Shown here one piece after another: positions 13,901 to 37,900 of a stretch of 64,000 bases of DNA. Positions within the stretch are counted from its first letter, which is position 1. Each line of letters begins with the position of its first letter. The DNA is from Candidatus Aenigmatarchaeota archaeon (lineage in GTDB: Archaea > Aenigmatarchaeota > Aenigmatarchaeia > QMZP01 > QMZT01): NCBI GenBank assembly GCA_963726265.1, contig CAVSBQ010000002.1, positions 288,001 through 352,000 on the forward strand, in the 5' to 3' direction. Position numbers: made by a program.

Positions 13901-16900
13901 GACGATTTTCCTCATGGCCTCCTTCGCCATCGCTATGCTCTTCGCTCCGGTGCAGACTATCTTGCCTGATGAAAAAATGAGCGCGGCCGCTCGCGGATCT
14001 TTAATCCTGTAGACGAGGCCGGGGAACTGCTCGGGCTCGTATTCGGTGTTGCCCATCTTCTCAACGAGCTTGTTCAGCACGATCTTCCTGCCCAAAACGG
14101 CGAAGGCCACTACGTTTTCGACTTTTATGTGAAATTCCACCACAAGCAACACCCTTTATACATTATTTGTATATAGCCACATAAATAGTTCTTCGGAAAA
14201 AGCCCTTCTGCTAAGCCTTTTCACGGCCGAAAAGCCTGCTCTGCTTCGATGCCCCGGCCGTTCCTTTGCTTCGCGCCTCCTGCGCCTTCAGCAGGAATTT
14301 CTCCGCATCCTCCGCCCTGTCTTCGGCCAGCAGCTCGAACAGGCCTTCGAAATGCTTCGGGTCGAGTCCCGCTTTCGTCAGATTCTCGAGCAGGATTTTC
14401 CTGCCCATGTCCTCGACCGAGAGCTTGTGCTCTTCCAGCGTCTTGGTGGGGAGCGCCTTCTCTTCCTTCTCCTTTTTGAAAGAAAGTATGAGCCTGCTGC
14501 CGAATTTCATCTCCACGTCCTTCGCAAGCGTTTCGGCCTTGCCTTTCAGGTCGAGCCTCACTATCGCCTTTTTGTCAGGGTTAGCCGCGGCGATTTCGTG
14601 CAGCTCCTTCTCAAGCGCCTCTTTGTCGTCCGCCCCGAACTGCCTCACATAGACCCTGCGCTGGTTCTCGAGCGGAATCCAGTAGAAGCGCACGCCGCCC
14701 CTGTCTATGAACTTCGTCGCTTTCGGCGGGTCGCTCGCGAGGTCGCGCATTGAAGTCTCGACTATCCAGAAGCCCTTCGGCTCTTCTGATTCGTCCTTTA
14801 TCTGGGTGGGCACGAGCGAACCGGTAAGGATGAAAGGTTTGCCCGCATAATCGGCATGCTTCGCCTCGTGTATGTGGCCGTTGACATAGAGGTCGAAGCC
14901 CTTCGGCAGCTTGTCCAGGCCGAGCGTATGCTGCGCGTAGAGGAACTCGGCAATCGACTGGTGGAGGACGATGATGTTGAAGCAACCGTGCTCTGGCGCA
15001 GGATTCCAGTTAGACAGCACGCTTTCCGCATACTGGTCGGGAACGCCCGACATGCCCTGTATGGCGACGCGTTCCCCGTCCTTCTCGAATATCACGCCGT
15101 TGCAGTGCAGGTATGTCAGGAAGCCAGCCTTCTCAAGCGCCTCGACCGGATTCAGAAATCCCTTCGTGCGCCGCTCGTGCGTGCCGTGTATCGCGACGGT
15201 GGGTATGCCCATGAGCGCGATTTCCGAAACCTTGGATATGTCCTTCCCGATGCCCTGCACGAGCTTGAGGCCGCTTTGCTCGAGCAGCGGGGGAATCATC
15301 AGTTCCATCGCCTTCGTCAGCGTCTCGGCGTCGGGGCTCCGCGTATCGAAAATGTCGCCGGCGAAAAGAATCAGGTCGCAGCCCAGCGTCTTGCCTATCG
15401 CTTCCCTGAAGGCATCGAACGGGTCTTCCGCGCGCTCGCTGCCCGCGCCGAAGCCGAAATGGAAATCCGAAAGGATTGCGATTCTCATGCTTTCAACCCA
15501 CTCTCATGGATATAATGGCGAAGGGTAATAAAAATAATCGTATGCAAGAAATCTGTTAAACATGTAACCACCAGAAAGAAGCTACAATAATAAAGTATTT
15601 AAATCTGTTATTCAAAAGTTATTTGTGATAACATGAGTGACGACTTTAGAAAGGAATTTAGTGACATGAGTGGAGAAGCGGAACGAACCAGGAAAAACTA
15701 TGTTGTTCTAGGCCCATACAACAGTACACCGCCATGGGACGGGCACTTTGCCGATACGGGCGTTAGCCAACGCGCACAATCTACAAGAGACGTGAAAGGG
15801 GCAAACTTATTTATTTAGGATTTTTGCCGTATAGGAACGAGTGAATGAACATGAAAGGATACAAAGGATTCAAAGGGCATTTTTTTGTTTCTGATAAAGG
15901 GAATATCGACGCTGTCGTTGAAGCCCTTAACAATGCGTACATTTATGTAATGGGACTTGAACCGCGATACATTGCTACTGGCGGTAAAATGCATACGAAT
16001 GATGATGGCTCTAGAAGGCCAGTATACAACAAAGACAGCGGGTGGATTAGCGATGCCGAAGGAACCCAGCTCGCAGTGGTGCATGAGCCCGGAAATGTCC
16101 CGAGGACAACCGCAACTGGCTCCGTGATTGAAAATCCGCGGCTTGTGGAAATATTCGCGACAGGAAGTTTAGACGCCAAATTGATAATGACGTTCATCGA
16201 AAGGACTATGCTTGAAAAAGGTTTTGAAATTGGCATGAATCCTTCTGAATACCTTTATACAATTGGCGACGCCTGAATATCTCATTGTCATGAGCGTAAG
16301 CCAGGCTGTGGCCCAAAACTTAAAAATCCATGCGCCAATAAAATAAAATGTCAGGCATAATCGGCATCTTCTCGGTGGATGACAAGAACATAATGGACGA
16401 CCTGTTCTACGGCCTCGCGGCCCTGCAGCATCAGCGGGGAAGAAGGCTGCGGCATAAGCGTCAACAACGGCAAATATTTTCACACGCTTTCCAGCGATGG
16501 TCCGGTCTACTACTTCCTCAAGGACAAGCTGGAAGGCCTGAAAAGGCTGAAGCCATCGATGGGCATAGGCCACACGCTCTACGAAAGGAGCGGGGACCTG
16601 CAGCCCGTCGAGCAGTGGGGCGACCAGAACGTGAACATCTCGCTGGCAATGGACGGGGTCCTGCTCGGATTCGGGGAGAAAAAGCACGACAGCGTGATGC
16701 GCACGCTGTTCCTCGATTACCTGAGGGAGGATGGCAATTTCTATTCGGCCGCCAGGAAGCTGATGGAAAAGCTCGATGGCAGGGGCCCTTACAGCGTGGT
16801 CATAGCGGTCAGGAAAGGCGGTAAATTTTATCTTATCGCTTTCCGCGACCCGAAGGGCATAAAGCCGCTGTGCCTGGGCAGGAAGGATAATGTTTACGTG

Positions 16901-34900: not shown

Positions 34901-37900
34901 CGCCTGCAGTCGCTTATCATGAAGGACCTCGGCCTTTCGTCCGTGATGGTCTCGACGCAGGTCATCCAGCGCGACAGACATGCTGAACTCGTTTTCGTGC
35001 TAGCGCTCATCGGCTCGACGCTCGAGAAGATAGCGAAAGAACTCCGCAACCTCCAGCGCACTGAGATAGGCGAGGTGCTGGAAAGCTTCGGCAGCAAGCA
35101 GGTCGGCAGCTCCACCATGCCTCACAAGCGAAACCCGTGGAAGTCGGAGAACATATGCTCTCTCGCGCGCGTGCTCAAGTCGCACGTCATGGTGGCGCTG
35201 GACAACAACCCCATGGAGCATGAGCGCGACCTCACCAACTCGGCTAATGAGAGAATCATCTTCGCGGAGAGCTTCATGCTGCTCGACTTCATGCTCAGGC
35301 GCATCAGCGACATCCTCATCAGCATGGAGCTGCAGCACGGCAGGATACAGGAGAACCTCGATTTGACGAAGGGGCTGGTCATGAGCGAGAAGATAATGAT
35401 TGCGCTGGTCAAAAAAGGCATAGGCCGCCAGGACGCGCACGAGATTATGCGCAAGGCAGCGATGGAGTCGTATGCGAAAGGCGCATCGCTCAAGGAAATC
35501 CTTCTGAAAAACCCGCAGGTAAAGAAATACTTTAACGCAAAAGAGCTCGAGCGCCTCCTCGACCCGCGCAACTACATAGGCACGGCAAGGGAACAGGTCG
35601 ACGACGTGCTGAAGGCAATTGGTAAAAAATAATTTTCTCTTTTTCATCCAAACTTAAAAATATCTGCTACATATTATTTACATGGCTGAAGATTTCATGG
35701 AGATAAACAGCTCCGAAAACCAGAAGGAGAAAAAGGAATTCACCTACGCGAATGCGGGCGTCGACATCGAGAAGGTCAAGCATGCGCATTCGAGCATGGC
35801 AGAGCTTTTCAGGCAGACTTTTTCCAACAGGTTCGACAAGTTCGGCCGCGTGATGAGCGAGATAGGCCATTACGCAGGCATGATAGACATAGGCGGCGGA
35901 AGGCTTCTGGCGATCCACGTCGACGGCGTGGGGACAAAAACGCTGGTTGCCCATGCCATGAGGAAATACGACACCATCGGCATCGATTGCGTCGCGATGA
36001 ACGTGAACGACCTGATATGCATGGGCGCCGAGCCGACGACGCTGGTTGATTACATCGCGCTCGAGAAGACGGACGAGCGCGTGATAAGCGAGATAGCGAA
36101 GGGCCTCGCGAAGGCGGCGAAGGAAGCGGGCATTGCGATTGTCGGCGGCGAGACCGCGATAATGCCTGACGTCGTAAAGGGCTTTGACCTGGCAGCGACT
36201 TCGCTCGGAGTCGTGTATCGCGACAGGGTAGTCACGGGCGAGAATATGGTGCCAGGCGACATCGTCATAGGGCTCGAGAGCTCCGGCATTCATTCGAACG
36301 GGCTCTCGCTGGCAAGGAAGCTCCTTCTCTCAAGGTTCGACATCGGGACTTATGTAAAAGAACTCGACTGCACCGCCGGCGAGGAGCTGCTCAAGCCGAC
36401 GAGGATTTACGTCAAGCCCGTGCTAGAGGTCCTGCAGAACTGCAAGGTCCACGGCCTCGCCCACATAACGGGCGGCGCTTTCTCGAAGCTCGCGCGCATA
36501 GGCAACAAAGCGAACGTGGGCTTCGACATAAAGCTTCCCAAGCCGACGAAGCCAGTCTTCAAAATGCTGCAGAAGTTTGGTACGCTGAGCGACCGCGAAA
36601 TGTTCCGCACGTTCAACATGGGAGTCGGCTTCATAATAGTCGTCCCCGGCGAGGAGCCGGAAGACTACGAGCGCGTCGCGGACGTTCTGAAAAAACATAA
36701 AATGCCCCACGCGGTGATAGGCAAGGTCACGCAGGTGCGCAAGATTCTGGTGAACGGCGTGGACGTGGCCTAGGACAACATTCTTAGCGGCTTTGCACTA
36801 AACTCCTTTCTGATTTTAATGATAATATCTTTTGAATTTTAGGGACAATGAAGATATTTAAAACTTTATGAAAGTGTATTCTTATGAACATAATGAAAGG
36901 AATAGCAGGTTATATTGGAATACCCGTACTGGTGGTCGCCGGTGCAGCAACCGGTCTACATTATTACTACACCCATAACGTGCGTAGTTATGATTTTTTT
37001 TCCGGAAAAACATTTTCAAAAGTAGATTTTCCTCTCTCTGATACAAGGATTAGTATAAAAGACAATTCAACGATGATATTCAGAAGCAAATTTTTTGGGG
37101 GAAGTGTTCATTACTCAGATAATGATGGGGATGGAACTGTCGATCAAATATATGAATATGATTCCCATTTGGCTAGAGGCGGTGGAAGTAGGGCTTTTGA
37201 TAGATCTACGGATTTTGATAGACATCCTGAAAAATTCAAAAAAGCCGATATAGACTTCCGAAGACAGATAAGAAGATTCAAACCACTCATGAGCAAGAAA
37301 TAATATCCCATTCTGAACTTCAATCAGATGAACCGAAAATAAGCGTCACCGAATAAAAGTTCGTTTATTTTTAGGTTCCGAAGTTCCGTTATTGGCTTAT
37401 TTATACGTATTTTCATACTTTTAACAGTTTATTCAACTAAATAAATATATTATTGTAGAAAATACATAAAATATTATTATTTTGGAACAAAATTCCAATT
37501 TAATGCGTTTATTTTGCAATAAATGGTTTTAGCTTAAGTCTTTTCTTTTTTGCTAAAAGTTTTTTCTAAAAAGCTTTACTTGTGCGCGAAATAGATAACG
37601 ATTTCCCCGCCGTCATTCGCATCGACCCTGCCGAAACCTATGCGCTCCATCTGGATTACGCTGTCTGGCTTGAGCCTCGCCATCTCAGGCTCGCCGATGC
37701 CGCGCAGCATGCCGTCTTTGGTGACTATTGCGACTTTCACGTGCGGCTCGCTGACCCACTGGAGCTTCTGCATGTCCTTCATGACCTCGTCGCCCATGCA
37801 CTTTGCCTTCCTGACCAGTGAGACGTTGCACAATCCTTTGAGTCGGATGACGCTGCCCTTGAACTTCTCGAAGTCCTGATTGGAGATGAAAATGTTTTTG

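Follow-up and report, generated by a model that had tools for sequence, protein, structure and literature searches.

A tyrosine-less GGGPS and an adjoining extended SDR as a probable replacement for the missing G1P dehydrogenase in an Aenigmatarchaeota genome with native purine and ether-lipid genes

G1P dehydrogenase (EgsA) is regarded as a hallmark of the archaeal membrane, and its absence has been used to argue that DPANN archaea take lipids from their hosts. In Aenigmarchaeota, mevalonate genes were reported at 20.0% and de novo nucleotide pathways at about 29.5% (PMC8407392). A near-complete phospholipid pathway was inferred in the ancestor of the phylum (PMC13195033), the tetraether synthase Tes is listed in most DPANN phyla with a suggestion of host contamination (PMC8941075), the ancestor of Micrarchaeota was considered unable to make a membrane (PMC12892359), and the reduction of alkyl-DHAP in eukaryotes is carried out by SDRs (PMC7517302, PMC13256971). 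The first-pass annotation, which had set the biosynthetic pathways of the present genome against the published picture of the phylum, was thus overstated, such pathways having been published in 20-30% of it.

The genome under study (1,132,268 bp, with a main contig, C2, of 1,105,251 bp; completeness 88%, contamination 0.8%) probably belongs to Aenigmatarchaeota, judging from the nearest named homologs of its Tes, GGGPS and SDR. The window, i.e., the whole stretch of 64,000 nucleotides that was analysed, bears on its plus strand guaB (IMP dehydrogenase, 1370..2816; 582 bits, above the cut-off of 481, with a frameshift near 2650 and an intact single ORF of 506 aa in the same-genus genome G350), purA (adenylosuccinate synthase, 3849..5058; frameshift near 4910, where the short-read contigs of X1 and X4 have one base fewer), purD (20544..21859; fragmented in this assembly, three genomes of the genus having it as one ORF of 443-456 aa), folD (21856..22707), purN, bifunctional purH and folC (23142..26666), purS, purL and purQ (27352..31045), and purE, purC, purB and purM (32888..36773, in an order kept in G349, G350 and G351). 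A 5-formyltetrahydrofolate cyclo-ligase gene lies on the minus strand (26685..27287), and the purine cluster is syntenic in these same three genomes of the genus. An ORF at 2886-3704, tried as guaA, was rejected as it matched no family. The ORF at 16559, where the stretch first pointed out begins, is in fact a frameshifted paralog of PurF (16348..17785, plus strand, frameshift near 16435), which scores below the cut-off (228 against 350 bits) and whose N-terminus, MSGI, has Ser in place of the catalytic Cys1, the same Ser start being present in G350. De novo purine synthesis, as previously claimed, is indeed encoded on C2 (purF-purH, guaAB and purAB), with canonical purF (C2:804982-806385) and guaA (C2:808191-809734) located outside the window. 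The set is complete (PurF, D, N, L/Q/S, M, E, C, B, H, A, GuaA/B and PRPP synthetase); PurK and folate synthesis/DHFR were not seen in a Pfam scan of this genome.

The SDR-GGGPS pair and the genes for lipids, mevalonate, pyr, nad and pdx are located elsewhere on C2, outside the window. Among them are pyrB-I-D-K-C-E-F, nadA/B, nadC and pdxS/T, in line with the nadABC and pdxST reported at first pass. De novo pyrimidine synthesis was only partly upheld: pyrB-F are present, but no source of carbamoyl phosphate was found, as carB, carbamate kinase and arginine deiminase gave no match in six frames of this genome. Carbamate kinase (arcC) and arginine deiminase were likewise each found in 0/5 genomes, and a carB match is missing in 12 of the 14 pyrB-bearing genomes of the family. 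Pyrimidine synthesis may therefore not run de novo, and, with neither carB nor G1P dehydrogenase found, the pyrimidine and lipid pathways are incomplete as textbook routes. These two absences had been overlooked, as had the candidate replacement module described below, which is the new part of this work. Peptide fermentation, already proposed, agrees with the gene content, in which POR, IOR, two ADP-forming acyl-CoA synthetases, GDH, aminotransferases, peptidases, group 3b and Mbh-like hydrogenases and an A-type ATP synthase are annotated. With these genes present and flux inferred from them, the organism would be a peptide fermenter and amino-acid auxotroph which makes its own purines, NAD, PLP and isoprenoid ether lipids as far as tetraethers. 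Family counts agreed with the earlier ones (purM over its cut-off in 11/22 genomes, pyrB in 13/22, AcnX in 13/22 and Tes in 20/22).

The archaeal mevalonate pathway of the Aeropyrum type comprises MVK, a two-subunit AcnX dehydratase, UbiD and UbiX, IPK and IDI2. All of these are encoded here, in an MVK-UbiD-AcnX-UbiX-IPK-IDI2 cluster (C2:865594-873782) in which UbiD and IDI2 are split in the assembly. C2 also bears other isoprenoid genes (thiolase/DUF35/HMGS and class II HMGR), the lipid genes IdsA, GGGPS, DGGGPS, CarS, Tes and two GGR, and an Ino1 with an AIP synthase-like gene. The claimed route from mevalonate to tetraethers is thus present as regards mevalonate, GGGPS, DGGGPS, CarS, GGR and Tes, but without a G1P dehydrogenase. 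The Tes assignment relies on 703 bits against NCBIfam NF045702 (cut-off 450), as compared with 332 against the paralog TrsS (cut-off 490), and on the presence of the four metal sites and of the equivalents of Met439 and Tyr459; in the phylum, 15/15 sampled Tes matches exceeded the NF045702 cut-off. The sequence GMMHFMD (for SCMHFMD) was considered as a defect of Tes and rejected, being also found in homologs from Archaeoglobus, Geoglobus and Sulfolobales. The MHFMD motif is missing in three of five divergent Tes homologs of the phylum. A YgiQ search added nothing.

Frameshifts are numerous in this genome (22 joints flagged among 1117 segments, an under-count), a host origin of DPANN Tes has been raised (PMC8941075), and a quick tree places Hadarchaeota Tes inside Aenigmatarchaeota Tes, all of which would be expected if the biosynthetic genes were host contamination or decaying pseudogenes. 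However, ribosomal, RNAP and ATP synthase genes stand on the same single contig as they do, the tetranucleotide profile is ordinary at the 16 loci checked, gene order is shared and ORFs are intact in three same-genus genomes, and Tes falls within a group of 16 phylum sequences supported at 99. Housekeeping genes are moreover broken as well, with intact versions on C3/C4 and on short-read contigs. This explanation, largely refuted, is hardly credible: the biosynthetic genes are real and native, and the frameshifts, of which the first-pass annotation had warned, look like assembly errors wherever tested, the genes being intact in same-genus genomes and short-read contigs. At the scale of the phylum (371 genomes), Tes was found in 224, GGGPS in 225, both in 184, and Tes without a GGGPS match in 40. 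Both are thus majority traits, which argues against the published suggestion of host contamination for DPANN Tes, and phylum members are possible GDGT producers, of relevance to GDGT proxies.

A G1P dehydrogenase of the EgsA/AraM type (Fe-ADH/DHQ-synthase-like family) was not found in six frames of the genome, which is 88% complete, nor was any Fe-ADH-type gene. The same was true of its whole family (egsA 0/23, GGGPS 22/23, Tes 21/23) and of family f4 (0/14, 14/14 and 12/14, respectively). The genome does encode an NAD(P)-dependent extended SDR (C2:121502-122383) and a group II GGGPS (C2:122414-123184), placed head-to-head with a gap of 30 bp. This GGGPS is clearly recognised (TIGR01769, 198 bits against 162; Mg-binding motif GLIDP; group II by tree; E 2e-56 with PDB 4MM1). 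Nevertheless, in the Tyr/Tyr/Glu triad of the G1P site, located by placing the residue numbers of a review onto the motifs by alignment position, both Tyr are replaced and Glu alone is kept, although these residues are described as strictly conserved determinants of stereospecificity (PMC9385802). The phosphate-binding loops of this subtype are likewise remodelled; a single-sequence model of the protein was weak (pLDDT 52) and was left out of inference. The SDR retains TGxxGxxG, the catalytic Ser and YxxxK in alignment, and its model (pLDDT 95) displays an extended-SDR fold, with a Rossmann and a C-terminal domain. Among solved structures, nucleotide-sugar epimerases and dehydratases come closest to it (18-24% identity), and it fell below the cut-offs of the equivalogs GalE, RmlD, HldD and HpnA (best 78 bits, cut-offs 213-368). 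Searching the ESM Atlas returned only generic SDR and GGGPS clusters.

The distribution of these genes is complementary. In genomes devoid of egsA, GGGPS is without the tyrosine linked to G1P stereospecificity and is usually a neighbour of the SDR. In the order (91 genomes), 31 have egsA only, 50 the SDR only, 4 both and 6 neither, the corresponding numbers in family f6 being 24, 17, 4 and 2, and swaps occur within four genera (g28, g29, g36 and g44). Both genes co-occur in only 10/371 genomes of the phylum, where the egsA count of 156 takes in weak matches, 21 being over the family cut-off. The YLE/YIE tyrosine is kept at 30 of 95 GGGPS loci and is missing at the other 65; an SDR lies within 1 kb of 54 of the 65 Tyr-less loci and of 0/30 canonical ones, in a non-random sample in which 22 of these 54 were reached via the SDR and 20 egsA-linked loci covered just some 3 kb. 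In a set of 18 genomes outside the phylum, grouped around one with Ca. Iainarchaeum in its title, egsA was found in 0/18 and GGGPS in 15/18, with 14/14 full main copies Tyr-less and an SDR within 1 kb in 10. Neither egsA nor SDR was detected at the thresholds used in 42 of the 225 GGGPS-bearing genomes, 7 of which had a weaker SDR adjoining GGGPS, and in three genomes (G029, G034 and G035) the SDR adjoins a DGGGPS homolog, not GGGPS. A metagenome scan with the SDR alignment yielded mostly generic epimerases, with GGGPS, of the variant type, at 1/80 loci. All Tyr-less GGGPS occupy one side of a single tree branch (SH-aLRT 87), and motif loss and SDR linkage may therefore be one historical event; lipid-linked SDRs require three changes on the SDR tree, from which one origin does not follow. 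On the grounds of gene position and complementary distribution, it is likely that the two-gene module stands in for egsA and canonical GGGPS. We attribute a probability of about 0.7 to the joint reading, i.e., native lipid synthesis with this module replacing both genes.

From a mechanistic point of view, we would tentatively propose, at somewhat less than even odds, that DHAP is prenylated and then reduced. The variant synthase would attach geranylgeranyl to dihydroxyacetone phosphate, the SDR would reduce the ketone at C2, yielding geranylgeranylglyceryl phosphate, in the order of eukaryotic ether-lipid synthesis, and DGGGPS, CarS, GGR and Tes would act downstream as usual, giving ether lipids up to tetraethers; a backbone of sn-G1P or sn-G3P would be compatible with this scheme. 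As the residues held responsible for stereospecificity towards G1P are lost, the SDR might also act on free DHAP, forming sn-glycerol-3-phosphate for a G3P-specific synthase, and the isoprenoid ether lipids would then have a backbone of bacterial stereochemistry; the distribution data fit equally, and the GGGPS of M. maripaludis accepts G3P at high concentration. We consider this fairly improbable, since we know of no G3P dehydrogenase of the extended-SDR type and since the C-terminal segment of the SDR, conserved and hydrophobic, suggests a lipid substrate and not a small soluble molecule. MoeO5, a relative of GGGPS, uses 3-phosphoglycerate as acceptor. The pair might thus make a non-backbone product, from such an acceptor or as a sugar head group, while GGR and Tes remodel host-derived G1P or archaeol, in line with the closeness of the SDR fold to nucleotide-sugar enzymes, the lack of an AcnX match in 9/22 family genomes, the genomes with Tes and no GGGPS match, and the mostly host-associated life described for DPANN. 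This is rather unlikely, as it leaves egsA complementarity and within-genus swaps unexplained, and as the genome retains IdsA, DGGGPS, CarS and every step of the mevalonate route, while a GDPD for salvage was not found in it. Lastly, the near mutual exclusion of SDR and egsA would also be expected if the SDR were an analogous G1P dehydrogenase, the changes in GGGPS being neutral or compensated; a G1P route of unknown kind has been reported in E. coli, and one was put forward for FCB bacteria (PMC7852524), and the SDR adjoins egsA in two genomes (G286 and G287) in which GGGPS was not found. Such an enzyme should however be paired with canonical GGGPS, which was the case at none of the 30 canonical loci, and the remodelled phosphate-binding loops also speak against it, so that we judge it distinctly unlikely.

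Returning to prenylation of DHAP before reduction, its extension to a DPANN-spanning GGGPS clade (Aenigmatarchaeota and Iainarchaeota at least), in which the ether bond would form on DHAP and a dedicated SDR set the stereocentre afterwards, as in eukaryotes, is doubtful. Were the SDR to deliver sn-G3P, isoprenoid diethers and Tes-made tetraethers would have bacterial/eukaryotic handedness. The lipid divide would then be breached in nature, and the view that DPANN ancestors devoid of G1P dehydrogenase were incapable of making membranes could be abandoned. The two-gene replacement is a concrete candidate for the missing-egsA problem and is relevant to the handedness of lipids in archaea, and, in a small archaeon with both nucleotide and lipid genes, the module may be an undescribed way to start archaeal membranes.

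Compared with known systems, the predicted Tes resembles GDGT-MAS/Tes of M. jannaschii (MJ0619, PDB 7TOL/7TOM; E 1e-143), of which it keeps the rubredoxin CxxC..CxxH, the N-terminal cluster and CX3CX2C besides the Met439/Tyr459 equivalents, and differs in sitting in what would be a DPANN archaeon. Norongarragalinales (Micrarchaeota) and Naiadarchaeales (Undinarchaeota) likewise have small genomes that encode nucleotide and ether-lipid pathways; G1P dehydrogenase and amino-acid synthesis are reported in Norongarragalinales, whereas the present genome has neither, nor carAB. FCB bacteria, Marine Group II and Lokiarchaeota share the puzzle of GGGPS/DGGGPS without G1P dehydrogenase (PMC7852524). 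Marine Group II and Lokiarchaeota are reported to be G3P-capable, whereas neither a glycerol kinase nor a full match to GpsA was found in five SDR-type genomes examined here. With respect to the canonical EgsA - GGGPS - DGGGPS - CarS - GGR - Tes route, group II GGGPS, DGGGPS, CarS, GGR and Tes are shared, while EgsA is absent and GGGPS has lost its conserved tyrosines and altered its phosphate loops; the SDR stands next to GGGPS, where related genomes have egsA. Finally, eukaryotic alkyl-DHAP synthase followed by the SDR acyl/alkyl-DHAP reductase would follow the same proposed order, with the ether bond formed before C2 reduction, but the enzymes here would be a prenyltransferase of TIM-barrel fold and an SDR of the extended type, and the likeness is offered as an analogy only.

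What goes beyond the genes of the first-pass annotation is a candidate EgsA-independent module. The G1P dehydrogenase gene egsA was detected in 156 of the 371 phylum genomes (E 1e-20; only 21 above cut-off), often adjoining the geranylgeranylglyceryl phosphate synthase (GGGPS) gene, and at this threshold in none of the 23 genomes of the present family or the 14 of family f4; EgsA proteins of five loci, used as queries, had no match in our genome. In egsA-less genomes, the common neighbour of GGGPS is an extended SDR of ~295 aa, and here SDR (C2:121502-122383, minus strand) and GGGPS (C2:122414-123184, plus strand) stand head-to-head, their starts 30 bp apart. 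A HAD phosphatase (C2:123213-123833 here), possibly acting on lipid phosphates, lies near the pair at 10 of the initial 20 loci compared (f1, f4; L194-L207). A profile built from 16 such SDRs matched 81/371 phylum genomes (E 1e-50), ten of the 371 having both SDR and egsA. Within the order (n = 91), 31 genomes had egsA only, 50 SDR only, 4 both and 6 neither, and within family f6 (n = 47) 24, 17, 4 and 2, respectively, these being counts over kin genomes, not independent, so that Fisher values overstate the pattern. Four genera (g28, g29, g36, g44) include members of each kind. The SDR adjoins DGGGPS rather than GGGPS in three genomes, and egsA in two where no GGGPS was found (G286, G287). Neither gene reached threshold in 42 of the 225 GGGPS genomes, seven of which have a weaker SDR beside GGGPS; one genome (G353) combines a canonical GGGPS with neither.

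The GGGPS itself is altered. Two tyrosines and a glutamate are described as strictly conserved and as the residues that chiefly determine stereospecificity and catalysis (passages of PMC9385802). Compared with the Methanothermobacter thermautotrophicus enzyme, ours reads SLLIIE for GYLVVE, TILERGSG for FYLEAGSG, AGSSKT for GGGIRS and IASL for TGTV. Across 95 GGGPS loci, a non-random sample in which 22 of the 54 SDR-linked loci were reached via the SDR and 20 egsA-linked loci are only ~3 kb long, the second tyrosine was kept in 30, none of them showing the SDR, and missing in 65, of which 54 had the SDR within 1 kb; 17 of these Tyr-less loci, ours included, lack both tyrosines. An SDR acting as an analog of G1P dehydrogenase, and so making G1P, would predict canonical GGGPS paired with the SDR; none was seen, and we consider this the least probable reading. 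In a GGGPS tree made without the motif columns, the Tyr-less enzymes fell on one side of a single branch within group II (SH-aLRT 87). A forward test took 18 genomes grouped around one that bears the title Ca. Iainarchaeum: none had egsA and 15 had GGGPS. Leaving aside a partial copy and a weak second copy, all 14 full main copies were Tyr-less, and 10 had the SDR no further than 1 kb away; one of these 14 belonged to the earlier locus set too. One Hadesarchaea and one Nitrososphaerales genome carried canonical GGGPS with no SDR in the flank.

From the observed genes, positions, motifs and distributions, we infer a function for the pair. Loss of the stereo-recognising tyrosine would be consistent with DHAP, which has a ketone at C2, or with G3P, the opposite enantiomer, as acceptor. 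We tentatively favour the former, at a probability of about 0.4: Tyr-less GGGPS would attach the prenyl group to DHAP first, and the SDR would then reduce prenylated DHAP. Two features of the SDR lean towards a lipid substrate: a hydrophobic segment conserved at its C-terminus, and matches to 3Beta_HSD and NAD_binding_4. In eukaryotes, SDRs reduce alkyl-DHAP (passages of PMC7517302 and PMC13256971). Use of G3P by Tyr-less GGGPS, with which the tyrosine loss is also compatible, seems unlikely, and we give similarly little credence to another function of the pair, or salvage. The nearest structures to the SDR are nucleotide-sugar enzymes (18-24% identity), its homologs bear generic names in public databases, and the lipid-linked SDRs may not be a single clade. 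No description of a GGGPS-linked SDR or a Tyr-less GGGPS subfamily was found in the literature searched (main texts and few subscription papers, including parts of PMC6431249, PMC7852524, PMC11868695, PMC13159169 and PMC12808674; the original GGGPS family survey lay outside this scope), and earlier published notice of either may exist.

In the PDB, GDGT-MAS was the sole match to tetraether synthase (Tes, C2:76395-78005; E 1e-143), and Tes retains the ligands that passages of PMC9433317 list. Phylum-wide counts add interest beyond this gene set: Tes occurred in 224/371 genomes (E 1e-40), GGGPS in 225 and both in 184. All 15 sampled Tes matches exceeded the Tes cut-off, three without the MHFMD motif. 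Divergent homologs above cut-off (L187, L188, L190; L386-L389) have MWFQD or no MHFMD, with open frames of 627-688 aa at L386-L389, and may have altered chemistry. Our Tes fell in a group of 16 phylum sequences (support 99) that broadly follows genera. In a quick, top-hit-biased tree (L126-L173), phylum Tes were not one group and Hadarchaeota were nested among Aenigmatarchaeota, hinting at transfer between them. Tes is reported from most DPANN phyla, perhaps belonging to hosts (part of PMC8941075); host contamination cannot explain the spread seen across this phylum.

The other announced pathways were largely recovered. Dicodon modelling of the 1,132,268 bp (4 contigs) gave 1117 coding segments; NCBIfam was run on 59 ORFs of the window (C2:288001-352000) and 42 pathway candidates, and Pfam (E 1e-14, then 1e-6) on 763 of 767 non-window segments of 125-1300 aa and 18 of 190 shorter ones, 11 above 1300 aa being left out. 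Absence of egsA, carB, arcC, ADI, GpsA, glycerol kinase and GDPD refers to six-frame family searches, any other absence to the Pfam scan alone. The nad, pdx, pyr, archaeal mevalonate and ether-lipid genes were confirmed on C2: DGGGPS, nadB and nadA (12288-17457), an AIP synthase-like gene with Ino1 (100696-102433), pdxS/T (102895-104390), CarS (278783-279313), nadC (359817-360815), the pyr operon (496082-501727), IdsA (531478-532476), HMGR (600200-601453), thiolase with HMGS (611950-614105), GGR (827391-828581) and the mevalonate cluster (865594-873782). Pyrimidine synthesis stood as the pyrB-F operon and not as a complete pathway: carB was not found in six frames (3/23 family genomes have it), and carbamate kinase and arginine deiminase were each found in 0/5 genomes. 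The family has pyrB in 14/23 genomes, mostly pyrB-F without carAB. Since OTC is present, imported citrulline is a possible carbamoyl-phosphate source.

Amino-acid synthesis was, as claimed, nearly absent (only GlnA, GDH, SHMT, SerA/SerC-like, TrpB2, OTC and aminotransferases). Peptide fermentation is a fair inference from POR (C1), IOR, two ADP-forming acyl-CoA synthetases, peptidases, an oligopeptide transporter, group 3b and Mbh-like NiFe hydrogenases, an A-type ATP synthase and two tandem membrane pyrophosphatases; an AMP phosphorylase-R15P isomerase-RuBisCO set is also present. The Mbh-like group 4 subunits are split among C2:718068-721964, C2:1044584-1047762 and L029:15335-16381, the large subunit keeping both NiFe motifs. 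With auxotrophy for amino acids and probably folate, a free-living lifestyle cannot be claimed. C2 further carries giant ORFs (738378-783245; ~3987, 3486, 2065 and 1950 aa), large LamG/NosD surface proteins (375-407 kb), ~10 PQQ-type beta-propeller genes, a reverse transcriptase (208619-209779; RVT_1, 387 aa), a LAGLIDADG intein in an Rpb1-type subunit (847353-849932), four FtsZ, three TBP, two PolB, two ThyX, DNA gyrase, ThiC/E/M and an LsrF-like thiolase adjoining a Zn dehydrogenase. Low-GC islands (0.38-0.43) lie at 550000-580000, overlapping a large glycosylation cluster, and 1010000-1020000; Fic-domain genes occur at window 56763-57677 and L026:5665-6546.

The purine cluster was borne out by NCBIfam, with two corrections: the ORF at window 16559 belongs to a PurF paralog, whose start (MSGI) is at 16348, and canonical purF (C2:804982-806385) and guaA (C2:808191-809734) lie outside the window; PRPP synthetase is at C2:1101704-1102603. 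In the paralog (16348-17785) Ser replaces the N-terminal catalytic Cys, as in G350 (L217/L218) of the same genus; G349 lacks it at the corresponding spot. It may be a regulatory copy or one that uses ammonia. Between guaB and purA, a conserved 272-aa ORF (2886-3704; no Pfam/NCBIfam match) shares 79-82% identity with counterparts in G349 and G350. Purine gene order is identical in these two, G351 and our genome; purD is unbroken in all three relatives, and so are guaB and purA in both relatives for which the compared region extends that far. On C2 the housekeeping genes gatD and gatE are broken, but C3 and C4 (L070, L071) carry them intact; these two contigs duplicate parts of window 5177-10824 at 94.5-98.5% identity, differ by indels where the breaks lie and are probably strain haplotypes remaining in the bin; short-read contigs have one base fewer at 4910 (purA) and 5900 (gatE). 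The breaks checked (purD, guaB, purA, gatD, gatE) look like assembly errors; nadA, nadB, UbiD and IDI2 also carry breaks. Tetranucleotide profiles are ordinary at pathway loci. PurM-like matches occur in 142/371 phylum genomes, only 36 above cut-off, and represent a divergent, widespread family.

These pathways had been set against the published picture of the phylum, and this framing did not hold, about half of it being already known. Passages of PMC8407114 report nucleotide pathways missing from most genomes and membranes not makeable; a G1PDH-less Micrarchaeota ancestor was concluded unable to make a membrane (part of PMC12892359). Mevalonate is given for 20.0% and de novo nucleotide synthesis for ~29.5% of genomes (part of PMC8407392), Aenigmarchaeota are named among lineages with such pathways, their G1PDH being noted (part of PMC12892359), and near-complete phospholipid synthesis is inferred for the phylum's ancestor (part of PMC13195033). 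Naiadarchaeales have full lipid and purine pathways (part of PMC7414124). The genes are real, and the genome is a fine illustration of a minority state already on record and does not contradict what is in print.
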